In this document: positions 2,643-49,299 of the stretch, piece by piece | Numbering within the stretch: position 1 is the stretch's first letter | How the letters are laid out: every line of letters starts with the position of its first letter | NCBI GenBank assembly: GCA_963725045.1 | Contig: CAVRWY010000014.1 | Location: 305 to 64,304, forward strand | Reading direction: 5' to 3' | Length of the DNA: 64,000 bases | Source of the DNA: an uncultured Gemmatimonadales bacterium | GTDB lineage: Bacteria; ARS69 | The notes under the pieces: model-generated | Database searches by the model: none | What the model was told of the DNA's origin: nothing | What the model saw: only the letters and a program-made list of their open reading frames with translations | Made by a program: the position numbers and the translations under genes

Positions 2643-3480
2643 ATGCGCGCACGGCGCAGCTCTCGGTGGCGGTCGCCGTGGTGCTGGTCGCGCTCAAGAC
2701 TGGGCGTGGTTTGCCTCGTCGTCGGTGGCGATGCTGGCCTCGCTCGCCGACTCTACGCTCGATTTGCTGGCCTCGCTGGTGACGTTTTCGCGGTGCGCTA
2801 CGCTGCGGCGCCGCCGGATCGCGAGCACCGTTTCGGGCACGGCAAGGCGGAGCGTTCGCCGCTCCGTGCAGGGCGGGCCTGGTGGCGGTGTCGGCGCGCT
2901 GGTGGCGCTGGAGGCGTTTCTCGTCTGTTTCGGCCCGCTCGTTCATCACGGCTTGCGAAAGCCTCGCGGTGATGGTGATCTCGATTCGTTCTGACCGCCG
3001 CTCTCGTCTCCGTGCAGACCCACGCGGTGCGCCGCACGGGCTCGGTGGCGACGCCGGCGCGGATCGCGTGCACTACGTCGGCGATCTGGCGTCGAATCCT
3101 GTGGTGATGGCGGGTCTCGGCCTGTGGCGTTTTATTTGGTCTTGTGCTGGGCGGACGCGGCGGCGGCGCTGCTGGTCGTCGCCTGGCTGGTATGGAGTTC
3201 TTTTCATGTGACCCGCGAGGCGGCCGATCATCTGCTTGACCGCGAACTCCCCGAGAAGCGCGCGCGCAGTATTCGCGCCCTTGCCGAGAACGATCCTCGC
3301 ATGGTGCCGTGTGCATGAACTCCGCACCCGCACCAGCGGATCTTACGTGCATATTCAGTTTCACGCCGAGTCGATCCGGCGCTCTCTCTTGAAGAGGCGC
3401 ACGGATCGTCGTCGCCGCCGAGGAGCGCATCCGCGCTGCTTTCCGACCGCCGATATCATCATCCACCCCGATCCCCGAAG
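2643..3480 (+). pseudogene. cation diffusion facilitator (CDF) family metal efflux transporter, >=5 frameshifts, no in-frame stop
   Basis: CDF motifs are scattered across all three + frames: [17 protein letters not shown] / AWFASSSVAMLASLADSTLDLLASLVTF / FAVRYAAAPPDREHRFGHGKAE / HYVGDLASNPVVMAGLGL / ADHLLDRELPEKRARSIRALAENDPRM / VHELRTRTSGSYVHIQFH…DIIIHPDP. Confidence 0.55.
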
Positions 3481-3530
3481 GGCCGCGCCGAACCCCACGG
3501 TCACGAGGATTTCGAACGTGCGCGTCGCGG

Positions 3531-3701
3531 TTGAGCATGACGCCCGAGCACCTCAAGCGCCGCGCCCGAGCGTTGGGCTTCGATGCGGTCGGCGTCGCGT
3601 CGGCCGAAGCGCCCTGGCCGGCGAAAGCGCACTTGCAGGAATTTCTGGGCGAAGGCCGCCACGGCGACATGGACTGGATGACGCGCGCGGTTCCCGGCTC
3701 G
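3531..3701 (+). pseudogene. queG: 5' remnant of epoxyqueuosine reductase QueG (first ~57 codons only)
   Basis: MSMTPEHLKRRARALGFDAVGVASAEAPWPAKAHLQEFLGEGRHGDMDWMTRA matches the QueG N-terminus. After this point none of the three frames continues QueG-like sequence, and the next gene starts ~3828. Confidence 0.45.
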
Positions 3702-3827
3702 AGCTTCTATCGGGAGGGGAGCGCGGGACGCGAGCGCCTCCGATTCAACTTCTGCAAGCGAGAGTCCACGCTGGATGCGGCCGCGGAGCGGCTCGCGGGA
3801 CTTCCGGAAGCGCTGGCCCGGTCGCGA

Positions 3828-5572
3828 CGTTGATTCGGGCGCTCGCGTCGCGCTGGATTCCGTTCGCGGCGGCGGGTCTCGCGATCGCGGTGCACGCGGG
3901 GACACTCGGCGCCGGATTCGTGTACGACGACTTTCCGTACATCGTCGAGAACCCCGATCTTCGCGGCGATTGGTCGCGCGCGCCGCAACTCTTCGCCTCG
4001 AGCTTCCCGAGTGCGGCGCCGGAGCGCGCGTTGTACCGGCCGCTGACCGCATGGACGCTCTTCGTCGATGCGCATCCCGCGCCGCTCGATCCCTTTCGAT
4101 TCCACGCGACGAACCTCGTGCTCGCCGCCGCCGCCGTGCTGGCGGTGCATGCGCTCTTGAAGCGCATGCTCCCCGCGGCCGCGGCGGGGGCGGGCGCCCT
4201 GCTCTTCGCGGTGCACCCGGTGCACGTCGAAGCGATCGCCTGGGTCACGGGGCGATCCGAGGTTCTTGCGGGCATTCTCGTGTGCGTCGCGCTCGCGCTC
4301 GCGCTCGACGCGGCGCGGGGCGGCTCCGCCGCGCGCGCCGCGGCGGCGGGGGGAGCGCTCGCCCTGGGAGTGCTGGCGAAGGAGAGCGCGGCGGCGGGAG
4401 TGCCGCTCGCCGTGCTTCTCCTCGCGGCGGATGCGCGCTCTCGGCGGTCACGCGCCGCGCCATCGGACGCGCCGCGCGCGACGGCGGGATGGTCGAGGAT
4501 CGTCGCCGGAGCGCTCTTCATCTCGGTCCTCGGCATGCTTCTCGTTCGCCAGGCGGTGCTCGGGCGATTTGCGCCGGCTGCCGGGGATCGGATCGTGGAA
4601 GGAGGCCTCCTCGATCGATTCCCGTTGGCGCTCGCGGCCGGCGGTGAGCACATGCGACTTCTGATCGCGCCTTGGCCGCTCTCCATCGAGCGCATGCCCG
4701 ACCCGCCGGGGTCGTGGAGCGATCCTCGTGTGGTTGCGGGGGTCGCTCTTCTGCTCGCCCTCGCTGCGCTGGTGATCGTGTTCGCACGCCGCGGACGAAT
4801 CGATCGCGCGGTCCTCGCGGCCTGGCCGGCGGTGGCGCTGCTTCCGGTCTCGCATCTGGTGCCCATCGGGGAGAGCGTGGCGGAGAGGTTTCTCTTTCTG
4901 CCTTCGGTGGGAGTCGCCGGGCTCGTGGGCTCGCTGTTGGCCGATGTGGAACCTCGCGCACGTCTCGCGCGTTTCGCGCCGGCACTACTCGCGGCTCTCC
5001 TCCTTGCCGGCGCCGCCGCATCGTGGACGCGTTCCATGGTGTGGAAGGACGAGCGCACGCTCTGGGAAGACGCACTTCGCCACGACGAAAGATCTCCGGC
5101 GCCGTGGGCCGCGCTCGGCGACGTCGAGCTTCGCGCAGGGAATGTGCGCCCTGCGATCGCGCGCTACGAAGGGGCGCTCGCCCGCGATCCCGCGCTCACG
5201 GTGGCGCGCTTGAATCTGGCGCGCGCGCTCGACGCGGCGGGGGATCCGGCGGGCGCGCTCGCGCAGTCTCGTGAAGCGGTGCGTCTCGATCCGGCTCACC
5301 CGGTCGCGTGGAATCATCTGGGCGCACGTCTCGCGCGCGCCGGAACCCACGACGAGGCGCGTGCCGCGTTCGATCGCGCGGTGGAGATCGCTCCGCGTTA
5401 TGCCCCGGCGCTCGTGAACGCAGCGCGGGCGGCTCTCGAGGCGGGGGACGCGGCACGAGCACGAGACCTCGTGCGGCGCGCGCGCCTCGCGGATCCCACG
5501 CTGCCGGGACTCGACGAGATCGAGCGCGGCGCGGGGAGCGGATCTCGAGACTCGAGCTCGGCCTCGAAGTGA
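3828..5572 (+). CDS. membrane protein with DUF1736/TMTC-like N-terminal polytopic domain and C-terminal TPR repeats
   Basis: GFVYDDFPYIVENPDLR…LYRPLTAWTLFVDAH…FHATNLVLAAAAVLAVHALL with multiple TM segments, then TPR-like repeats (AWNHLGARLARAGTHDEARAAFDRAVEIAPRYAPALVNAARAALEAGD). Likely TTG/GTG start near 3828-3837; the ORF is open from 3236. Confidence 0.6.
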
Positions 5573-5883
5573 AAGGAACGCGACGGACTCGCCCCCGCAG
5601 ACTTGCGCTCATGCGGTACCGCGAACTGTGCTCGCGAGCACGCGCGTGATTCCCTGCCGGCAAGCCGGCTCCGGATTCCCCTCGGCCGCCGTTGCTGCTC
5701 GGCGCCCAGAAGAGATTGAAGGCGCCTGCGCTGCGCTGACGCGTCTCGAGGGGAACCCGGAGCCGGACCGGCAGGGACACCACGTCGGAATTCGCTCGCT
5801 TGGTGATTGCCGGACGCCGGCGAGACCGCCAGGCGACCCGATCGCATTCACTCGAGCGGCGTCAGTGCAACGCAGGCGCGCGC

Positions 5884-6117
5884 TTCGATGCGCCTCGGAT
5901 TCCCAGTGTCTCGAGGCGAACTGGCGTACCGGAGGCGCACCGGCGGTCGCCGCCCAGAGTCCCGGTACCTTTCGGCGAGCCTGCGTACCACAGACGTAGA
6001 TCTTGTTCTCCACGAAGCGAAAAGCGCGAGCCGAAAGGCTCCGGGAGGCTGGGCAAGAGGCGAGCCGCGGGCGCGCCGAGGAACGTATGTGAGACGACGA
6101 GATACTGGGAATCCGAG
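5884..6117. repeat. MITE-like ~230-bp repeat, copy 1, bounded by ~25-bp terminal inverted repeats (GCCTCGGATTCCCAGTGTCTCGAGGC)
   Basis: 5891-5917 gcctcggattcccagtgtctcgaggcg and its inverted partner at 6100-6118 (actgggaatccgaggctc). The interior is near-identical to 30760-30985 in the opposite orientation. Intergenic, between the TPR gene and xdhC. Confidence 0.7.
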
Positions 6118-6184
6118 GCTCATGGAGTCGCCCTTCCCCAGACCCGGCGTCCGCCCGATAATGGCGAGAGAGAAGGAGCGTCCC

Positions 6185-7057
6185 ATGCTGGCGTTTCAGG
6201 ACAAGCTCGCCGAGCACCTCCGGCAGGGACGGACCGTGGCGGTCGCGACCATCGTCGCGAGCCGCGGATCCACGCCGCGAAAGGTCGGCGCGAAGATGAT
6301 CGTCCAGGAATCGGGAGCGATCGACTTCACGCTGGGAGGCGGCGCGTTCGAAGCGCTCGTGATCGAAGACGCGAAGGAAGTGCTCCGTTCGGGGGAGGCC
6401 GCGATCAAGTGCTATCGCTTCCTTCCCGTGGGGGAGAACGCGACGGGAATGACGTGCGGAGGGGAGGTCGAAGTGTTTCTGGAACCGGCCAAGCGCGCTC
6501 CCCGGCTCGTGATCTTCGGCGGGGGGCACGTGGCGATGCCGCTCGCGCGCGCCGCGCGCGATCTCGGATTTCGAATCGCGGTGATCGACGACCGTCCGGC
6601 GTTCGCGGCTCGCGATCGTTTTCCCGATGCCGACGAGATCGTGCTCGCGGAAGGCGGATTCGCGCGCGTGGACTTTCCGCTGGAGCCCGAAGACTTCGTG
6701 GTGATCGTGACCCGCTGTCACCAGACCGACGAAGCGTCGCTCCGTCTCGTGCTCGCGGAAGATCGCGAGCCGGCGTACGTCGGAGTGGTGGCGTCGCGCC
6801 GCAAGGCGAAGGTGCTGCTCGCCCGTCTCGCGCAAGAGGGAGTGCCGCGCGAGCGTCTGGAGGAGATCCGCACGCCGATCGGGCTCGACATCGGCGCGGA
6901 AACTCCGGAGGAGATCGCCGTTTCCATCTTGGGAGAAGTTCTGGCCGTACGTCGCGGAAGAGCCGCGGGATTCCTCTCCGAAGAGACCTGCGTTCCCGAG
7001 AACGTCACCGTGCGCCGCACGGCGCGTCCGCCGCGAGGTCAGGCCGCAGGCGGTTGA
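6185..7057 (+). CDS. XdhC/CoxI family molybdoenzyme maturation (xanthine/CO dehydrogenase accessory) protein
   Basis: MLAFQDKLAEHLRQGRTVAVATIVASRGSTPRKVGAKMIV…VIFGGGHVAMPLARAARDLGFRIAVIDDRP…VGVVASRRKA…IGLDIGAETPEEIAVSILGEVLAV. AAGGAG lies 7 nt upstream of ATG 6185. Confidence 0.7.
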   Translation: MLAFQDKLAEHLRQGRTVAVATIVASRGSTPRKVGAKMIVQESGAIDFTLGGGAFEALVIEDAKEVLRSGEAAIKCYRFLPVGENATGMTCGGEVEVFLEPAKRAPRLVIFGGGHVAMPLARAARDLGFRIAVIDDRPAFAARDRFPDADEIVLAEGGFARVDFPLEPEDFVVIVTRCHQTDEASLRLVLAEDREPAYVGVVASRRKAKVLLARLAQEGVPRERLEEIRTPIGLDIGAETPEEIAVSILGEVLAVRRGRAAGFLSEETCVPENVTVRRTARPPRGQAAGG

Positions 7058-7989: not shown

Positions 7990-8787
7990 GTGCCTCGTGC
8001 CACTCCATCGATTTCCGAACCCACCGCGCCCGTTTCCGGGCTCGTCCCCATCCCGCTCGACGAGGGGGCCCGCGTGGTGTGGAGCGTCGCTTCCGGCGCG
8101 GTGGCCGCTCCCCCCGGGGAAACGGCCCGGCGCCTGCGCGGCGCGCTTCGTGATCCGCGCGAGATCGCCGGCGTCGTGCTCGAGCTCAGCGGGATCGACG
8201 CGCCCACTTCTGGCGCGACGCGTTCGCTTCTCGATCTCGCCGGAGAGCTGGAGCGTCGCGGCGTCGGGGTCGTCGCGAGCGGAGGCAGCGCGGATCTCCT
8301 CACCGCGCTCTCGCTGGAGGACGATCTCTCCCGTCTTCCGCGCGTCGGCGATCTCTCCGCGGCGATCGCGCTGCTCCGCGAATTCGACGACGCGGCGCGC
8401 CGTCTCGCGAGCCGCCCCGCGGGCCCCGCGCGCGTCGTTCGATTTCCCGCGCGGCGGGAGAGCGTGGCTCCGATCTGCCGGCTGCTCCGGCTGCGGCTCG
8501 GCGAAGACGGGCTCGCGAGCCGCGCACGCGACCGCATGGTGCGCCGCGCGTGGGACGTCATCCACAGCGAGATCCTGGCCGCGTGTGATCCTTCCCTCGA
8601 TCATCTGGGCGTGTGTGCGCGCGTGCATGATGCGCGCGTGACGATCACGCTTCTCGACGAAGGCTCGGGATCGCGACCGGACGAGCGTGCGACCGAGGGC
8701 CGTGGCGGGATGCGCGTCCACCGCTTCCGGATTCTCGGAAGACATCACGCGACCGTTCTCGAAGCTCCCGCGCGTCAGTCCACGTAG
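7990..8787 (+). CDS. fused STAS (anti-sigma-factor antagonist-like) + RsbW-like HATPase domain protein
   Basis: STAS-like EIAGVVLELSGIDAPTSGATRSLLDLAGELERRGVGVVASGGSADLLTAL, followed by ILAACDPSLDHLGVCARVHDARVTITLLDEGSG (anti-sigma kinase HATPase pattern). The start is uncertain (GTG ~7990 with GGAG upstream). Confidence 0.4.
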   Translation: MPRATPSISEPTAPVSGLVPIPLDEGARVVWSVASGAVAAPPGETARRLRGALRDPREIAGVVLELSGIDAPTSGATRSLLDLAGELERRGVGVVASGGSADLLTALSLEDDLSRLPRVGDLSAAIALLREFDDAARRLASRPAGPARVVRFPARRESVAPICRLLRLRLGEDGLASRARDRMVRRAWDVIHSEILAACDPSLDHLGVCARVHDARVTITLLDEGSGSRPDERATEGRGGMRVHRFRILGRHHATVLEAPARQST

Positions 8788-10625
8788 CCGAGCGCGCGAA
8801 GCTTCTCGACGGTCTCGCTGGAGAGCTCCTCCGGCCGGATCGCGCGGGGCGCATTCGTGTAGAGCGGCGTCGCATGGCGCGAGAGCCACTCTTGAAGCCG
8901 ATCGTGCGCTCTCTGCGCTTCCTCGGGCGAGAGGGGAAGCGGTGCCGATTCCCCAGGATCGGCGAGAAGATCGAAGCGGGACGCGGGACCATTTTCCGGC
9001 AGCACGATTTTCTCCTGCGGCGTGCGGATCGCGAAGTCGCGCTGCAGCTGCGCGAACGAAGCGGTGCGCGCGGCGACGCTTCCCTGCGGGCGCTCTCCCG
9101 GATCGCGTCCTTCCCAGACGTCGCGCGGCGTCTCCCCGGTGATTCGCGCCAGCGCGGGGAGCACGTCGACGTTCTCGATGGGGCCGGCGACGAGCACCCC
9201 GGGACGCACTCCCGCCCCGCGAATTCCGAGCAGAATTCGCAGCGTGGAGTCGTAGAGCGTTCGCCCGTGCGAGAAACGAGGCTCGTGGTCCAGCAGATTC
9301 TCGCCGTGATCGGAGGAGAGCACGAGGATCGCGCGATCGAGAAGCCCGCGCTCTTGCAGTGCGCGCCGAAGCCGGCCGACCTTTTCGTCGGCGAATCGGA
9401 TCTCCGCGACATAGGCCTCTTCCGACGGCCGCCACCCGAAGCGATTGCGCTTGCGGGCACGCGGGGCCGCCGCGACGTCGTCGGGGGCGCCTTCGGGGCG
9501 CGCGCCGAAGCGGGGTCCGAACGGATGCGGAGGAGCGTAGGGAGAATGCACGTCCATCACGTGAACGAAGAGGAACAACGGCTCCGCGCCTTCGTCGAGA
9601 AATCGCAGCATCGTCTCGAAGCTGGGGTCGTATCCCGGGCGCAGGCGTCCGAGAACGCGGTCGATCACCTGGACCAATGCAAGGCTTCGTGTGAGCACGG
9701 CGGGGCTCGCCGATCGCGCGCGCTCGACGCGTCCCGACTCCACGTACAGCTCGAATCCTTGGTCGAATCCGAACCTCTTTCCGAGAAACGTGTTGGTGAC
9801 GAAGCCGGCGGTGCGATACCCGCGCTCCGAAAGAACTTCCGCGAGCGTTTCCACTTCCTCGCTCAGCACGGTGAAGTTCGTGAACACGCCGTGCGAGACC
9901 GGATAGCGCGAGGTGAGCAAGGACGCGTGGGACGGAGCCGAGCCGGGGGAGGGAGTCGTCGCGTCGACGAAGAACGAGCCCTCGCGCAACAGGCGATCGA
10001 CTTCGGGAGACGTGGGCAGCGGGCTCCCACCTCCCGAGAGACGATCGGGACGGAGCGTGTCGATGGAAAGAATGACGATCGGAGGCGCGTCCGAGCGGGG
10101 CGGGCGCTTCGTGACGAGAAAGCGCGGCGAGAGTGCCCCGGCTCCGAGGACGAGCGCCATCGTGATCGCCGAGGCCGGACGCAGGATCGCGGGAATCGCG
10201 CGATCGCGAAACGCCCGCGCGATCGCGCGTCCGACCGCGGCACCGGCGACTGCAGCGACGAGGAGCGCGACGAAATCCAAGAGGAGGCTGCGCACATCCA
10301 GAAAGCTCGCTCCGCGCAGCACGATTCGATTCGCCAGCATGCCGAGTGCGATCGCCAGCGGCACCGCGGTGAGCAGCCCCGCGAGAATGCCGAGCGTCGC
10401 GGCCGCGGGCCGTGTCGCCCCTCCCGCGATGCGGACCACGCCCGCAAGCCCGAGCCCGGCGACGAAACCCAAAAGGCCGTCGGCCCCCACCGCGAAGGGA
10501 AGTCGCGCGAACACGGCGCCGGGGAAGAGCGCCCATTCCACGATGCCGCAGAGCGCACCGAGCATTGCCCCGAGAGCGGCGCCCGCGGCGAGGGTCGAGA
10601 ACTTGCGAGCTCCGGGATTCATCAT
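8775..10625 (-). CDS. membrane-anchored sulfatase-family hydrolase/transferase (5-6 N-terminal TM + sulfatase domain)
   Basis: MMNPGARKF… with several TM helices, then ILSIDTLRPDRLS…TTPSPGSAPSHASLLTSRYPVSHGV (sulfatase active-site region)…VLSSDHGENLLDH. A continuous 616-codon ORF; ATG at 10625. Confidence 0.75.
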   Translation of the reverse strand: MMNPGARKFSTLAAGAALGAMLGALCGIVEWALFPGAVFARLPFAVGADGLLGFVAGLGLAGVVRIAGGATRPAAATLGILAGLLTAVPLAIALGMLANRIVLRGASFLDVRSLLLDFVALLVAAVAGAAVGRAIARAFRDRAIPAILRPASAITMALVLGAGALSPRFLVTKRPPRSDAPPIVILSIDTLRPDRLSGGGSPLPTSPEVDRLLREGSFFVDATTPSPGSAPSHASLLTSRYPVSHGVFTNFTVLSEEVETLAEVLSERGYRTAGFVTNTFLGKRFGFDQGFELYVESGRVERARSASPAVLTRSLALVQVIDRVLGRLRPGYDPSFETMLRFLDEGAEPLFLFVHVMDVHSPYAPPHPFGPRFGARPEGAPDDVAAAPRARKRNRFGWRPSEEAYVAEIRFADEKVGRLRRALQERGLLDRAILVLSSDHGENLLDHEPRFSHGRTLYDSTLRILLGIRGAGVRPGVLVAGPIENVDVLPALARITGETPRDVWEGRDPGERPQGSVAARTASFAQLQRDFAIRTPQEKIVLPENGPASRFDLLADPGESAPLPLSPEEAQRAHDRLQEWLSRHATPLYTNAPRAIRPEELSSETVEKLRALGYVD

Positions 10626-12472: not shown

Positions 12473-12548
12473 TGGTGGAGCTGAGGGGGATCGAACCCCT
12501 GACCCCTTGACTGCCAGTCAAGTGCTCTCCCATCTGAGCTACAGCCCC
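12473..12548 (-). tRNA. tRNA-Ala (anticodon GGC), CCA encoded
   Basis: Reverse complement GGGGCTGTAGCTCAGATGGGAGAGCACTTGACTGGCAGTCAAGGGGTCAGGGGTTCGATCCCCCTCAGCTCCACCA. Cloverleaf folds, G3:U70 Ala identity pair is present, and the anticodon loop is CTGGCAG. Confidence 0.85.
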
Positions 12549-12668: not shown

Positions 12669-12752
12669 GCCGGAGTGGTGAAACTGGTAGACGCAGCGGA
12701 CTCAAAATCCGCCGAACTTCGGTTCGTGCCGGTTCGATTCCGGCCTCCGGCA
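12669..12752 (+). tRNA. tRNA-Leu (anticodon CAA), long variable arm, CCA not encoded
   Basis: GCCGGAGTGGTGAAACTGGTAGACGCAGCGGACTCAAAATCCGCCGAACTTCGGTTCGTGCCGGTTCGATTCCGGCCTCCGGCA. Acceptor stem GCCGGAG/CTCCGGC; anticodon loop CTCAAAA. Confidence 0.8.
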
Positions 12753-30096: not shown

Positions 30097-30759
30097 CCGC
30101 TCGCCGCGGCGTCTCGCCTCGTGCTCGAAACGCGCGTTCCGGCCCGCCGGCACCCGGCCCGCGCCCGATCGTAGGAACGCGAAGCGACCGCGATCGGAGC
30201 CCTCTCGCGTCCCCGATTGGGGACCTTTCCCCAGCGTTCGTGCGCAAAAGGCCGCGCCGCGCGCTCATCTTGCGACCTGGTGAGACGGCTTCCCCCGAAA
30301 ACCCTTCGCTGGCTCTCGCCGATCGCTGCAAATCCTGACTGCGACCCGCTGGCATGTCCTCTGCATGATGCTCTGGTTGCGCGGGCGATGTCTTCGTCGG
30401 GAACGAAACACCGACTCGGACCTGCAACCTAGTTGATCGCTCCCTCGATGGCTCGCACGCGCATGCGGAACCTCACGGCTGCGCCGCGAGCTCCGCCCGG
30501 TCCCGATTCAGTCTCCTGCGATGTCACGTGATTCGCGGGCGCTCGGCCTGACGACCCTGGGATTCCCGTGGTGACTCGGCGCACGGCGTCAATGCGGGGG
30601 ACTTTCTTCGCGAAGGGGGCGGCAACGCCCCCTTTGCTCGTTGGAGCCGGCCGCGATCTCCGAGAGACAGGCTGCGCGAGCGAAGCTCGGACGTGATGCC
30701 CGCCGGTTCTCCGGCTCGGGTCCCCTCGGCGGCCGTTGCTGCGTTGGCGCTCGCATGAA

Positions 30760-30985
30760 GGCCTCGGATCCCGATCTCTCGCTGCGCATACGTTCCTCGG
30801 CGCGCCGGCGGCTCGCCTCGTGCCCAGATTCCCGGAGCCTTTCGGCTCGCGCTTTTCGCTTCGTGGAGAAGGAGATCTGCGTCGGCGTTACGCAGGCTCG
30901 CCGAAAGGTACCGGGACTCTGGGCGGCGACCGCCGGTGCGCCTCCGGTACGCCAGCTCGCCTCGAGACACTGGGAATCCGAGGCC
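30760..30985. repeat. MITE-like ~230-bp repeat, copy 2 (inverted relative to copy 1)
   Basis: Reverse complement of 30760-30985 aligns almost base-for-base with 5891-6117, including the terminal inverted repeat ctcgagacactgggaatccgaggc at 30960-30984. Lies in the non-coding leader upstream of the BMC locus. Confidence 0.7.
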
Positions 30986-31182
30986 ATTGAAGAGCGCCAG
31001 CGCCGCGCTCGACGGCGCTCGAGGGGAACCGCCAAGCGGGACCGACGAGGGACAGCAACGCATGAGGTCGCTCGCAGTGCCGGATGCTTCGAGGCTACGA
31101 TCGTCGGCGAGCATCCACTCGCTGTGGAACGATCGGATGATGCCCGGGCGATCTCGGCAGAGCGCCGCCCCAGCGATTGACA

Positions 31183-31216
31183 CAGGCCGCCGATCGAGCA
31201 ATTCTCCGGGCCTTCC
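31183..31216 (+). promoter_or_regulatory. candidate sigma70-type promoter of the BMC operon
   Basis: TTGACA (31183-31188), 17 nt, then AATTCT. Followed by a GAAGGGCGG Shine-Dalgarno and ATG 31237 of the first BMC-H gene. By eye only. Confidence 0.25.
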
Positions 31217-31236: not shown

Positions 31237-31510
31237 ATGGAGGGAGAGGCTCTCGGGTCTGGTCGAAACGCGCGGATTCGTCGGCTTGGCCGAGGCATCC
31301 GACGCGATGGTCAAAGCGGCGCGGGTCACCATCACCAAGTACGAGCGCATCGGATCGGCGTACGTGACGACGCTGGTGCGCGGCGAGGTGGGCGCGGTGA
31401 ACGCCGCGGTGGCCGCGGGAGCCGATGCCGCACGACGTGTCGGCGAGCTGGTGACGAGCCACGTCATTCCCAGTCCGCATCCTTCGCTGGAAGACATTTT
31501 CTTGAAGTGA
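31237..31510 (+). CDS. BMC-H hexameric shell protein (PduA/EutM family), 1-nt insertion near codon 8
   Basis: MEGEALG in one frame, then [74 protein letters not shown] in the next frame. An extra base falls in gggtctggtc (expected gggctggtc). Confidence 0.75.
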
Positions 31511-31523
31511 CGGGAGGTGGTCG

Positions 31524-31827
31524 ATGAGCGAAGCCTTGGGAATGATCGAGACGCGCGGTTTCGTGGCGCTCGTCGAGGCGTCCGACGCGATGGTCAAAGC
31601 CGCGAACGTGACGCTCGTGGGATACGAGAAGATCGGCGGGGGATACGTGACCGCGATCGTTCGCGGAGACGTGGCCGCCGTGAAGGCCGCGACCGATGCG
31701 GGATCCGCGGCGGCGAACAAGGTCGGAGAGCTCGGTCTCCGTTCACGTCATTCCGCGTCCCCACGGCAACGTGGAGAAGGTCCTCCCCGTCGGACGCGCC
31801 GAGAAGGCGGAAGCCGCCCGAACCTGA
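31524..31827 (+). CDS. BMC-H hexameric shell protein (second paralog), 1-nt insertion near 31738
   Basis: [70 protein letters not shown], then a frame change. The corrected frame gives [30 protein letters not shown] and a stop at 31825-31827. Confidence 0.75.
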
Positions 31828-31846
31828 TCCGCTCGAGGAGGGCCCG

Positions 31847-32155
31847 ATGATCCTCGGGCGCATCGCCGGAACCGTCGTCGCCACGCGCAAGGACGAACGA
31901 CTCGGCGGATTCAAGCTTCAAATCGTGGAGACCGTCGGCCTCGACCTGAAGCCGACCGGCGCCTTCACCATCGCGGTCGACGTGGTCGGCGCCGGGGACG
32001 GCGAGATCGTGCTGGTGGCGTCGGGATCGTCCGCGCGTCTCACCTCCGCGACCAAGGACAAGCCCGTCGACGCGGTGATCCTCGCGATCGTCGACACGGT
32101 GGAGGCCGAAGGCCGCATCCGCTACACGAAGGCCGCGGCCGAGGCCGCGCGTTGA
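31847..32155 (+). CDS. BMC-P pentameric vertex protein (EutN/PduN/CcmL family), paralog 1
   Basis: [65 protein letters not shown]…; GAGGAGGG lies upstream of the ATG. Confidence 0.8.
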
Positions 32156-33618
32156 TCGCGCGGAGCCCCGGCGTGACCCTCGACGAGTCCCGCGTCGAAA
32201 CGCTCGTCGAGCGCGTGCTCCGCCGGCTCGAGGGAGACGCCGCACACTCCGGAATCGCCCGCCCGGCAGTTTCCGCGAGCGCGCGCGGCACGGGCCCGGT
32301 GTTCGAGACTCCCGACGACGCCGCACGCGAAGCGCAGCGCGCGTTTCGCGACTTGGGCGAGACTTCGCTCGAAGTTCGCGATCGCATGATCGCGGCGATT
32401 CGCCGCGCGGTCGAAGAGCACGCGCCGGAGCTTGCGCGCCTCGCCGTGGAAGAGACCGGCCTCGGTCGCGTCGACGACAAGATCAAGAAGAACCTCCTCG
32501 TCGGCCGCAAGACGCCGGGCACGGAAGATCTGGCCCCCACCGCGCGCTCGGGCGATCACGGCCTCACGCTCGAAGAGCGCGCCCCGTACGGCGTGATCCT
32601 CTCGGTGACGCCGTCCACGAATCCGTCCGAGACGGTGATCAACAACGGCATCGGCATGCTCGCCGGCGGCAACGCCGTGATCTTCGCGCCGCATCCGTCC
32701 GCGGCGCGCGTGTCGCTGCGCGCGATCGAAATTCTCGAGCGCGCCGCGCGCGAGGCCGGCGGTCCCGCGAACGTGTTCACCACGATCGCGAAGCCCTCCA
32801 TCGAAGCGACGCAGGCGCTCATGCGCCACGACGCGGTGCGTCTCCTGGTGGTGACCGGCGGCGCCGGCGTGGTGAAGGAAGCGATGTCGGTCGGCAAGCG
32901 GGCGATCACCGCGGGGCCGGGGAATCCTCCGGTCGTGGTCGACGCGACCGCGGATCTTGGACCGCGCCGCGCGCGGCATCGTGGCCGGCGCTTCGCTCGA
33001 CAACAACATCGTGTGCACCGACGAGAAGGAAGTGATCGCGGTGGCCAGCATCGTGGGCGAGCTCATGACGCGCCTGGAGCGCGCCGGAGCGTTTCGCCTG
33101 CGCGGCCGCGAGCTCGATTTGGTGCGCAAGGCAGTGCTCCACGAGGATCGCGGGCCGCGGCGGCGCAGCATTCCGAACAAGGAGCTGATCGGCAAGGACG
33201 CGGGCGTCATCTTGGAGGCGGCGGGAGTTTCCGGACCGAGCACGACGCGGCTTCTCGTCGCCGAGGTCGACGACGGCCATCCGTTCCTGTGGACCGAGCT
33301 CATGATGCCGGTGATCGGCGTGGCCTGCGGCCCGCGACGTCGACGCCGCGATCGACTTCGCGCAAGGACGTGGAAGGCGGCAATCGTCACACCGCCGCCA
33401 TGTACTCGCACGACGTGACCAAGCTCTCGCGCATGGCGCGCACCATCGACTGCTCCATCTTCGTGAAGAACGGGCCCACGTTCAACGGGCTCGGCGAAGG
33501 GGGAGAGGGTTTCACCAGCTACACGATCGCGAGTCCCACCGGCGAAGGCATGACCACTGCGCGCAGCTTCACGCGGTTTCGCCGCTGCACGCTCGTCGAC
33601 TCCTTCCGCATCGTTTGA
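32152..33618 (+). CDS. CoA-acylating aldehyde dehydrogenase (PduP/EutE family) with N-terminal encapsulation-peptide-like helix; >=3 frameshifts
   Basis: N-terminus LDESRVETLVERVLRRLEG (amphipathic) plus a low-complexity linker, then ALDH core (…ETGLGRVDDKIKKN…SVTPSTNPSETVINNGIGMLAGGNAVIFAPHP…). The middle (DRAARGIVAGASLDNNIVCTDEKEVIAVASIV…) and the tail (KDVEGGNRHTAAMYSHDVTKLSRMARTIDCSIFVKNGPTFNGLGEGGEGFTS) are in other frames. Confidence 0.7.
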   Translation: MIARSPGVTLDESRVETLVERVLRRLEGDAAHSGIARPAVSASARGTGPVFETPDDAAREAQRAFRDLGETSLEVRDRMIAAIRRAVEEHAPELARLAVEETGLGRVDDKIKKNLLVGRKTPGTEDLAPTARSGDHGLTLEERAPYGVILSVTPSTNPSETVINNGIGMLAGGNAVIFAPHPSAARVSLRAIEILERAAREAGGPANVFTTIAKPSIEATQALMRHDAVRLLVVTGGAGVVKEAMSVGKRAITAGPGNPPVVVDATADLGPRRARHRGRRFARQQHRVHRREGSDRGGQHRGRAHDAPGARRSVSPARPRARFGAQGSAPRGSRAAAAQHSEQGADRQGRGRHLGGGGSFRTEHDAASRRRGRRRPSVPVDRAHDAGDRRGLRPATSTPRSTSRKDVEGGNRHTAAMYSHDVTKLSRMARTIDCSIFVKNGPTFNGLGEGGEGFTSYTIASPTGEGMTTARSFTRFRRCTLVDSFRIV

Positions 33619-33630
33619 GGCGCCCGCATT

Positions 33631-34242
33631 GTGGAATGGAACGCCGATTCGCTGGGTCTTCTGGAGCTCGGCTCGATCGCCGCGGGAGTGCGCGCCGCCG
33701 ACGAAGTCGTGAAGGCCGCGCGGGTGGATCTCGTCGAAGCGATCCCGATCTCGACCGGAAAGTTCCTGGTGATTTTCGCCGGCGGCGTCGCTGAAGTGGA
33801 AGCGTCGCTCGAAGCGGGAACGCGGGTCGCGCAGGACGCGATCGTGGATACGCTGCGTCTCGCGCGGGTGCATCGCGACGTGCCGCCGGCGATCGCGCGC
33901 CCGCGCGGTGCGCGGGCGATTGCGGCGGCGCTCGGAATCGTGGAGACCACGACGGTGGCGGCGGCGATCGAGGGTGCGGACGCGGCGGCGAAGGCCGCGG
34001 AGGTCCAGCTCCTGGAGATTGCGCCGGGACGAGGAATCGGCGGGCGCGGGTTCTTCACGCTGACCGGCGACGTCGGCTCGGTGCAGGCGGCGTGCGACGC
34101 CGCGCGCGTTCTCATCGACCGGCGCGCCGCGCACATTCGGACGGAAGTTCTCTCGGGACCGCACGCGCTGGTGCGCGATCGTGTGGGGCGCATGCTGATG
34201 GGACACTTCGAGCGGCTCGCGTCGCGCGCGGAGGATGCGTGA
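33631..34242 (+). CDS. BMC-T shell protein (tandem BMC domains)
   Basis: Two PF00936-like halves: LGLLELGSIAAGVRAADEVVKAARVDLVEAIPISTGKFLVIFAGGVAEVEASLEAG… and ALGIVETTTVAAAIEGADAAAKAAEVQLLEIAPGRGIGGRGFFTLTGDVGSVQAACDAA…. Confidence 0.7.
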   Translation: MEWNADSLGLLELGSIAAGVRAADEVVKAARVDLVEAIPISTGKFLVIFAGGVAEVEASLEAGTRVAQDAIVDTLRLARVHRDVPPAIARPRGARAIAAALGIVETTTVAAAIEGADAAAKAAEVQLLEIAPGRGIGGRGFFTLTGDVGSVQAACDAARVLIDRRAAHIRTEVLSGPHALVRDRVGRMLMGHFERLASRAEDA

Positions 34243-34521
34243 ACTTCGCACGGGTCATCGGGAGCATTGTCGCAACCGCGAAGGACGAGAGCTTGAGCGG
34301 TGTGCTCCTGCGCGTCGTGCAGCCGTGCGACGAAGCGGGGCATCCTCGGGGCGAGCCCTTCGTCGCCATCGATCCGCTGCAGACCCGCGAAGGAGATCTG
34401 GTCTTCGTGGTGCGAGCCCGCGAAGCGGCAAAGGCGTTTGCCGTCGAAATTCGCGCCGGTCGACGCCGCGATCGTGGGACTCGTCGACGGCATCGACCGC
34501 GGCGACGAGTCGCAGTCGTGA
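34239..34521 (+). CDS. BMC-P vertex protein, paralog 2 (frameshift near 34440)
   Basis: GTG overlaps the BMC-T stop. VNFARVIGSIVATAKDESLSGVLLRVVQPCDEAGHPRGEPFVAIDPLQTREGDLVFVVRAREAAKAF, then the C-terminus …FAPVDAAIVGLVDGIDRGDESQS in the adjacent frame. Confidence 0.65.
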
Positions 34522-34799
34522 AGATCGCGCGCGTGATCGGCCGGGTCTGGGCGACGTCGAAGGATGCGTCGCTCGAGGGGCGGACGATTCTCCTGCTTCG
34601 CCCACTGGATCTGGAAGGCCGTGCGGTCGGTGAAGCCTACCTCGCCGTCGACGCTGCGCAGGCGGGAGCGGGGGAGCGCGTGCTCGTCGTCGACGAAGGG
34701 GGCTCGGCCGGGCAGGTCTTGGGTCTCGCCGAACCTCCCATCCGCACCGTCGTCGTCGGCGTGGTCGACGAGGTGCACCGCGCCACGGAACGCACATGA
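34518..34799 (+). CDS. BMC-P vertex protein, paralog 3
   Basis: GTG overlaps the paralog-2 stop (GTGA). VKIARVIGRVWATSKDASLEGRTILLLRPLDLEGRAVGEAYLAVDAAQAGAGERVLVVDEGGSAGQVLG…. Confidence 0.7.
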   Translation: MKIARVIGRVWATSKDASLEGRTILLLRPLDLEGRAVGEAYLAVDAAQAGAGERVLVVDEGGSAGQVLGLAEPPIRTVVVGVVDEVHRATERT

Positions 34800-35565
34800 A
34801 GCCGCTTCACGAGATCAAGCGCGACGTCGCGCGCGTGTGCCGGCGGCTCGACGAGCGCGAGTACGTCGGCGGGCGCGACGGCAACGTCTCCGTGCGTCTC
34901 ACCGCGAACACGATCCTGATCACGCCGGCGGGCATTCGCAAAGGGGACGTGGAGGAGCGCGATCTTCTCGTGGTGGACGCGAACGGCGTGAAGATCGAAG
35001 GGCGCGGCCATCCGTCGACGGAGACGGGGATGCACTGCCACGTATATCGCCGCCGCACCGACGTCCGTGCGGTGGTGCACGCGCATCCTCCGGTCGCGAC
35101 CGGGTTCGCCGCCGCGGGACGCGGGCTCACCGGATGCGTGCTTCCCGAGGTCGTGGTGGGTTTGGGCGAGGTCCCGGTGGCGCCGTACGCGCTTCCCGGG
35201 ACGGACGAAGTGGCGTCGGCGATCGATCCGTTCCTGGAGCGCCACGACGCGCTGCTCCTGGGAAACCACGGCGCGGTCGCGTTCGGCGAAGACGTGGATG
35301 CCGCGCACCAACGGATGGAGACGCTGGAGCAATCGGCGCGAATTCTCTTGGTGGCGCGGTTGCTCGGCGGTGCGCATCCGCTGGGGGAAGACGAGGTGCG
35401 CCGCTTGATCGAAGCGCGGGCGCCGCTACGGAGTGCGCGCGGACCTCGCCGGATGCATCCTGGGCGACACGTTCCCGCCGCGAGCTTCGGAGCCGGCTGC
35501 GGCGCCGGATGATGACGCCCTCGTCGAGCGCATCGCCGAGCGCGTCCGGCGGCTGCTTGGTTAGC
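34796..35565 (+). CDS. class II aldolase/adducin-family enzyme (fuculose/rhamnulose-phosphate aldolase-like) with C-terminal encapsulation-peptide-like helix; frameshift ~35440
   Basis: …GNVSVRL…LITPAG…HAHPP…GNHGAVAFGEDVDAAHQRMETLE… class II aldolase motifs. The terminal segment in the adjacent frame, …GDTFPPRASEPAAAPDDDALVERIAERVRRLLG, ends at TAG 35563-35565. Confidence 0.65.
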
Positions 35566-49222: not shown

Positions 49223-49299
49223 GGGCGATTAGCTCAGCTGGTTAGAGTGCCTGCTTGACATGCAGGAGGTCACTGGTTCGAGTCCAGTATCGCCCACCA
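49223..49299 (+). tRNA. tRNA-Val (anticodon GAC), CCA encoded
   Basis: GGGCGATTAGCTCAGCTGGTTAGAGTGCCTGCTTGACATGCAGGAGGTCACTGGTTCGAGTCCAGTATCGCCCACCA; anticodon loop TTGACAT. Confidence 0.85.

Follow-up and report, generated by a model that had tools for sequence, protein, structure and literature searches.

A probable MITE-like family of palindromic repeats, nested with other hairpin repeats in genomes of an uncultured bacterial lineage

The 64-kb stretch of contig CAVRWY010000014.1 (assembly GCA_963725045.1) that we analysed, called the window from here on, contains two inverted copies of a palindromic repeat which we name element E. The first copy, E1 (5892-6119, 228 bp, + strand), lies between a TPR gene (3236-5572) and the XdhC gene (6185-7057, with a GAAGGAG ribosome-binding site ahead of it). 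The second, E2 (30761-30984, 224 bp, − strand), lies upstream of two bacterial microcompartment (BMC) genes of the BMC-H type that begin at ~31240 and are followed by an aldehyde dehydrogenase gene and further shell genes. We set the limits of E with an nhmmer profile built from all copies (E = 5.5e-73 for E1 and E = 1e-70 for E2) and fixed its ends with a five-copy alignment, in which three copies come from the closest retrievable genome, GCA_975092465.1 (XdhC 86% and aldehyde dehydrogenase 82% identical), whose contig is collinear with the window over 3.7-43.7 kb. The inverted pair 5892-6089/30787-30984 (198 nt ungapped, 94% complementary) is the longest repeat of any kind in the window, where the next longest pair measures 48 nt, and the full-length copies are 90% identical. 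These results uphold an initial annotation, made from the sequence alone, that had described two near-identical inverted copies of ~230 bp lying between genes, with the small correction that xdhC starts at 6185 rather than at 6186.

The termini of E are 22-nt inverted repeats (GCCTCGGATTCCCAGTRTCTCG). Within the window the 22-mer GCCTCGGATTCCCAGTGTCTCG was found three times at up to one mismatch, where none is expected by chance: as the left terminal repeat of E1 (5892-5913, + strand, exact match), as its right terminal repeat (6098-6119, − strand, 21/22 bases) and at 30963-30984 (− strand). Both E1 termini are spanned by an inverted-repeat pair with arms at 5880-5913 and 6098-6131 (85% complementary). 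The other terminus of E2 (30761-30782, GCCTCGGATCCCGATCTCTCG) has decayed, and the proposal that both copies are bounded by inverted repeats is therefore fully right for E1 and only partly so for E2. Because of the same degraded terminus, the longer 26-mer with a ...CGAGGC tail that had been proposed is present at just one end of each copy. Each copy is an almost complete hairpin, so that the whole element is palindromic and not its termini alone. When E1 was folded as RNA, the minimum free energy was −149.3 kcal/mol (z = −10.4) for the + strand and −142.5 kcal/mol (z = −9.5) for the − strand, a very stable hairpin in either case. Since both strands fold similarly, E is best described as a DNA-level palindrome without strand bias.

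The DNA around E belongs largely to a second palindromic family of ~175 bp, named A. Sensitive blastn found two matches between the loci in direct orientation (5626-5705 with 30672-30750, 77%; 5715-5799 with 30986-31075, 78%); the ~45-bp upstream flank that the two copies had been said to share is thus real, but was undersized, being a part of A. At the TPR/xdhC locus the two halves of A are contiguous and constitute A1 (5626-5799, + strand; nhmmer A profile, E = 6.3e-49), an uninterrupted or "empty" copy with arms of ~40 nt and a loop of ~60 nt; a hairpin had been suspected in this flank, and 5645-5784 is indeed 70% self-complementary. At the BMC locus the halves of a further copy, A3 (30672-30753, + strand, E = 1.9e-17; 30985-31075, + strand, E = 2.9e-17), are separated by exactly E2. 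A good direct repeat (7/8) surrounds E2 as a candidate target-site duplication, with CATGAAG on the left (30754-30760, + strand) and CATTGAAG on the right (30985-30992, + strand), and the junctions read ...GCTCG CATGAAG / E2 / CATTGAAG AGCGCC.... Both A1 and an uninterrupted A copy on contig L021 of GCA_975092465.1 (9756-9935, 83% identical to A1) have a single ATTGA(A/G) at the point where E2 is inserted. Judged from these alignments, A3 split by E2 appears, next to the two empty A copies, as the classic filled/empty pattern with a 7-8-bp duplication. Together, the left half of A, E2 and the right half of A (30676-31075) form a single 400-nt imperfect palindrome.

The left flank of E1 is A2 (5800-5891, − strand), the remnant of an inverted A-like element recognised by blastn and alignment beyond E. 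Read on the opposite strand, its segment 5851-5891 matches the A3 loop (30985-31023), positions 97-130 of the A profile match 5880-5847 on the − strand (nhmmer, E = 0.007), and a weak palindrome spans 5722-5879 in the A1/A2 region. The similarity between E1 and E2 accordingly exceeds E itself (5851-6132 with 31023-30746, 87% by blastn). Since the flanks of E1 are A-loop sequence, the TPR/xdhC locus reads as an empty A1 beside a truncated, inverted A::E composite; E thus appears nested in A at the BMC locus and in a truncated, inverted A at the TPR/xdhC locus. Three other candidates around A were rejected: a sigma-54 promoter in the A loop (..GG..N8..GC) has the wrong spacing; the similarity of the flanks of two predicted proteins that derive from E (P0241 and P0245) to the A arms is too weak for a relationship to be claimed; and the enrichment of GGATTCCC (12 observed against 3.1 expected) dissolves, as 6/12 occurrences lie in E, A or a conserved segment upstream of the BMC operon and the other six are unremarkable.

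Comparison with the closest relative outlined the history of the TPR/xdhC junction. The 658 bp of the window between 5527 and 6184 correspond to only 72 bp in GCA_975092465.1 (L005 9929-10000), and the distance from the TPR stop codon to the xdhC start is 29 bp there against 612 bp in the window; in relatives whose XdhC is 80-83% identical, xdhC overlaps its upstream gene. From the short spacer or the overlap in the relatives it follows that a lineage-specific block of ~590 bp (5528-6126 by comparison with L005) was inserted in the window, consisting of ~90 bp of no assigned family, A1, the A2 remnant and E1. Besides separating the TPR gene from xdhC, the block has displaced the final ~13 TPR codons: where the relative keeps the ancestral C-terminal tail ...EIERRLAAPSPRAHEPR, the window has ...EIERGAGSGSRDSSSASK, read from inserted DNA. 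Fourteen residues and the stop codon of the new C-terminus come from the block (window 5480-5572 against L005 9873-9971).

The BMC locus of GCA_975092465.1 also has E in its leader (L009 8738-8972, 83% by blastn), in an orientation opposite to that of E2 and with different immediate flanks. An orthologous left half of A is present in L009 (8360-8446), and on the A profile it breaks off where A3 does. As both sequenced relatives share an A ahead of the BMC operon that is broken at the same point in each, the site is probably old. After this half, L009 has a third palindromic element, B (~8445-8710), that is missing from the window; the outer arms of B are GCTCGCGGCTCCCTCCCGC... and ...GCGGGAGGGAACAGCGAGC, and B fragments lie around both E copies on L021. 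More distant relatives (L011-L020, aldehyde dehydrogenase 76% identical) have the same BMC operon, ahead of which only a conserved segment of 124 nt is shared; no E or A was found at their BMC locus.

E is not confined to these sites. Four loci of the two genomes yielded five DNA copies (E1, E2, L009 8738-8972, and L021 9249-9477 on the − strand and 10146-10375 on the + strand), all between 224 and 235 bp long. The flanks in L009 diverge from those of the window copies exactly at GCCTCGG...CCGAGGC, and the two L021 copies match each other (93%) solely across E, which fixes the ends of the element independently; L021 also has a terminal pair of inverted repeats of 30 nt (97%). Both copies fall in the 1.3 kb that separates convergent genes, where they enclose an intact A and are themselves surrounded by fragments of B. 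The region L021 9249-10376 is a 1.13-kb nested imperfect palindrome composed of E (−), inner arms at 9646-9744 and 9998-10097, a central A (9756-9935) and E (+), and resembles a foldback element in that two E copies of 230 bp, inverted to each other, form the termini on either side of a palindromic core; it is the single such arrangement seen. A 30-nt motif, GAGGCCGCAGGCGAATCCAA.TCGCGCTCG, stands at 9481, 9946 and 10409 of the same contig, at a spacing of ~465 bp. Another contig of this relative, the short-read Logan contig L010, starts within the right end of E (1-34), which fits an assembly break at a multi-copy repeat.

As GC-rich repeats are often mis-called as genes, we also searched protein space for E. 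One frame of E1 (+2), run with HMMER against the complete set of 1.84 billion protein representatives, returned seven open reading frames (ORFs) from NCBI/ENA, JGI and SRC; two of these correspond to the L021 copies, the remaining five to new ones. All seven contain ...LGFPVSRGELAYRRRTGGRRPESR.LSASLR...KSASRK.PGIWA.GEPPARRGT..., and their N- and C-terminal contexts are unrelated. Added to the five DNA copies, the five new ORFs bring the family to at least ten distinct copies. A word-indexed protein search with the frame +1 translation gave one candidate and nothing significant. The closest named protein matches are from Gemmatimonadota. Copies are 90% identical within the window genome and 90-92.5% within the relative, and 81-88% identical between the two; that they group by genome despite the orthologous BMC-site copies indicates that E spread or was homogenised after the lineages split. 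Rather than two copies only, with one of them inside a conserved gene, the searches therefore revealed further copies in other contexts and genomes.

None of these copies appears to encode a protein, as the initial annotation had held. Four frames of E are open only through its high G+C content, the copies differ by indels of 1, 2 and 3 nt, the E-derived ORF P0244 switches to another frame inside E when compared with the other translations, and the ORFs called over the L009 and L021 copies had no Pfam match. In public annotation "hypothetical proteins" of 239, 191 and 195 aa are placed across E, A and B (L009 8271-8990, L021 8887-9462 and L021 10001-10588, respectively); these are almost certainly spurious ORFs.

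E, then, is non-coding, has discrete ends, occupies a number of unrelated loci across at least two genomes, and varies in presence between otherwise homologous sites. We consider that it represents a new MITE-like (miniature inverted-repeat transposable element), non-autonomous palindromic repeat family that multiplied within the genomes of one uncultured lineage, and we put the probability of this reading at roughly two in three. A non-autonomous mobile element had already been suggested, and the common ends, the dispersed copies, the filled/empty comparison and the empty TPR/xdhC junction all support the suggestion. According to the model that we favour, a transposase acting in trans on the GCCTCGGATTCCCAGTGTCTCG termini would move, or would have moved, E and would leave a target duplication of ~7-8 bp. 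E would preferentially land in, or ride along with, the hairpin repeats A and B, giving rise to nested intergenic palindromes. The BMC-leader site would be old, and the TPR/xdhC copy would have come later, within the ~590-bp block of an empty A and a truncated, inverted A::E.

Several observations weigh against this reading. Target duplications are uneven: beside the clear repeat at E2, the copy L021b has 5/6, E1 has a weak repeat (TCGATG/TCATG) and L021a has none. In L009, CCGCGG stands on both sides and, being self-complementary, could equally extend the inverted repeat. The left flanks of the five copies (..GATGC, ..CAATG, ..GCGGC, ..CGAGT and ..GCAGT) show no fixed motif, and neither do the right flanks. 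Recombination between the inverted L021 copies was considered as the cause of the missing duplication at L021a; its prediction of swapped flanks did not fit. No transposase was detected among the ORFs sampled from the window or in the annotation of the relative's collinear region, as the initial annotation had stated for the neighbourhood of E. E1 seems to have arrived as part of the ~590-bp block and not as a clean single-element insertion, and the flanks shared by E1 and E2 reach ~40 nt past one end of E and ~13 nt past the other. L009 and L021b share flanks as well, which indicates that some copies spread as larger composites or by segmental copying. An identity of 90-94% within genomes argues against very recent activity. 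The co-occurrence of E with A is beyond what simple independent transposition explains. Finally, the exact terminal-repeat pattern CTCGGATTCCCAGTNTCTCG gave only three chance 20-26-mers in 185,579 species-representative genomes and one in JGI metagenome contigs, none of which could be extended; a more general pattern gave one chance match in viral contigs.

Prokaryotic MITEs are described as elements of 50-800 bp with terminal repeats of at least 10-15 bp and target duplications of 2-10 bp (PMC3184786, PMC11602168). E is small, has terminal repeats, lacks coding capacity and occurs in dispersed copies with presence/absence at homologous sites; it fits the operational definition except for consistent target duplications and a known parent insertion sequence (IS). 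Bacterial elements of this kind include Correia/CREE of Neisseria, ERIC of enterobacteria, RUP of Streptococcus pneumoniae and Nezha of cyanobacteria. Like them, E is mostly intergenic, forms a long hairpin, has flanking direct repeats in at least one copy, and sometimes sits at gene ends where it is likely co-transcribed. It differs from MITEs generally in that no parent IS was identified, the whole element is palindromic, its target duplications are inconsistent, and it is strongly associated with, and nested in, the two other palindromic families A and B. By blastn, E has no match in plasmids and A+E none in all complete E. coli genomes.

The alternative that survives best regards E, A and B as modules of a mosaic like the bacterial interspersed mosaic elements (BIMEs) or the REPINs, which are built from repetitive extragenic palindromic (REP) sequences, and not as cut-and-paste MITEs. 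Spread would then be due to a hairpin-recognising enzyme, such as a RAYT-like HUH/Y1 protein, or to template-switching, in which replication at hairpins enlarges palindromes by inverted duplication of the adjoining DNA. A lies within 300 bp of E at all four E-bearing loci, and this co-occurrence, together with the 1.13-kb L021 palindrome, is what keeps the alternative alive. The modules also occur in alternating orientation and in both nesting orders, as in the 400-nt and 1.13-kb palindromes, and the palindrome extends past E in L009 and L021b; the uneven target duplications and the 30-nt motif repeated along L021 are likewise easier to place here. As in BIME clusters, the units are extragenic palindromes joined by recurring linkers (both window loci, L009 and L021), and, as with REP sequences and BIMEs, they persist vertically in the lineage and are targets of other elements (PMC2817692, PMC3116915, PMC3184786). 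REP units are, however, palindromes of 20-40 bp with a GTAG or CGTC head (PMC3733652, PMC2817692), whereas the units of E, A and B measure 175-270 bp, 5-10 times as much, and carry no such tag: E starts with GCCTCGG and A has nothing of the kind. E, in contrast to REP sequences, has true terminal inverted repeats and one clear insertion, E2, that is flanked by a direct repeat and matched by two empty sites. No RAYT (IS200/IS605-like Y1) gene was found in the ~125 kb read of the two genomes, and E also differs from the palindrome-associated elements derived from IS200/IS605, which have no terminal inverted repeats and use a fixed tetra- or pentanucleotide target. We regard the mosaic alternative as unlikely, though not negligible. 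A bolder version of it is somewhat less probable still, and we raise it as a speculation: long palindromic modules of 175-270 bp may have spread by hairpin-directed insertion or hairpin-templated inverted duplication, building palindromes of up to 1.1 kb, and the copy retained before the BMC operon in two species might have been recruited as an insulator or attenuator, separating the BMC promoter from a conserved transcript that is driven by sigma-54 and ends at a terminator.

A regulatory role was weighed in its own right, with E as a cis-acting RNA hairpin or protein-bound DNA palindrome that controls the BMC operon and owes its conservation to this, and with the xdhC copy as a secondary duplicate. 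Such a role would agree with the presence of E before the BMC-H genes in two genomes (81-86% identical, in flanking DNA that is 76-89% identical), with the long arm stretches that are invariant over all five copies, and with the great stability of the hairpin. The two BMC-site copies are, however, opposite in orientation and differ in their immediate flanks, two further copies lie between unrelated convergent genes on another contig, and more distant relatives have the same operon and no E. E therefore lacks the fixed strand and position of a riboswitch or leader RNA, its orientation relative to neighbouring genes being inconsistent, and it lies upstream of a conserved TTGACA box. The evidence for RNA structure under selection is equally adverse: in the five-copy alignment 1/86 hairpin pairs is compensatory, one or more copies break ~24 of the pairs, and the covariation term comes out unfavourable at +3.7. 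The relative's copy (L009) folds less well (z = −5.9 against −10.4), and both strands of E fold about equally. An Rfam search of both loci at E ≤ 1 returned only MIR1437, a plant GC-hairpin microRNA model, with 29 bits against a gathering score of 168, and the whole window at gathering score contained no relevant family. These results speak against the structured-RNA family that the initial annotation had offered as an alternative, and we regard a conserved role of E in controlling the BMC operon as very improbable. At gathering score, Rfam matched nothing in the window but three tRNA genes, at 12476-12548 (−), 12669-12752 (+) and 49223-49296 (+).

Least probable of all is a one-off, immobile segmental duplication, arising when the BMC leader and the TPR/xdhC junction underwent illegitimate recombination with each other. 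It would account for the flanks that E1 and E2 share beyond E and for the composite nature of the ~590-bp insertion. As a complete account it is contradicted by the eight or more additional copies found in other surroundings and other genomes, and by the L021 copies, whose similarity stops exactly at the ends of E; it could describe the origin of the TPR/xdhC copy.

The surroundings of E2 deserve a description of their own. The gene order of the BMC locus (31240-35500; also L009 and L011) is two BMC-H, one BMC-P (EutN), an aldehyde dehydrogenase, a tandem-domain BMC-T, two BMC-P and a class II aldolase, followed by the gene of ribosomal protein S20 on the opposite strand, and it is conserved across relatives. 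The second BMC-H was confirmed by Pfam; the first had no Pfam match and is assigned from its repeat to the second and from the relative's annotation. A sigma-54-type promoter match, TGGCATgtcctCTGCA, with exact GG/GC spacing lies at 30349-30364 (+) and is conserved in L009 and L011. Downstream of it, the conserved segment of ~125 nt (30515-30636), 82% identical even in relatives without E or A, terminates in a terminator-like hairpin, GAAGGGGGCGGCAACGCCCCCTTTG. No Rfam family was found for the conserved segment in 30349-30640, and the region is a candidate small-RNA or attenuator locus, dependent on sigma-54, upstream of the BMC operon. Approximately 60 nt upstream of the first BMC-H start, GATTGACAC...GAGCAAT(T) is conserved (window 31172-31200, L009 ~9000-9030, L011 ~5010-5040) and likely represents the promoter of the operon. 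The inserted E and A DNA lies between the upstream terminator-like hairpin and this TTGACA promoter-like box at 31177, which is conserved in all relatives. E2 is thus probably outside the BMC mRNA, upstream of the TTGACA box and not in an obvious leader.

As for what the family means, E is a genomic parasite of an ordinary kind and does not reveal a biological system of a new type; the nesting of E with A and B adds a modest interest. Its practical consequences are visible in the data: gene callers make false "hypothetical proteins" from the E, A and B repeats (the 239-aa ORF in L009 and P0241-P0247), and the start of L010 inside E is consistent with assembly breaks caused by the repeat. In the genome studied here, a single insertion rewrote the C-terminus of the TPR protein and moved xdhC away from the TPR gene by 612 bp of strongly structured DNA, whereas the closest relative has the two genes tightly paired. 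At the BMC locus, E2 lies between a candidate regulatory transcript and the promoter of the operon and could alter expression. Placed inside a transcription unit or next to one, a GC-rich hairpin of 230-400 nt could serve as a terminator, an insulator, an RNase target or a stabiliser, functions that have been described for other bacterial MITEs; any effect of E on the expression of the BMC operon or of xdhC is speculation. It provides a small, tractable example of palindromic repeats nested in one another, from an uncultured lineage that probably belongs to the Gemmatimonadota.

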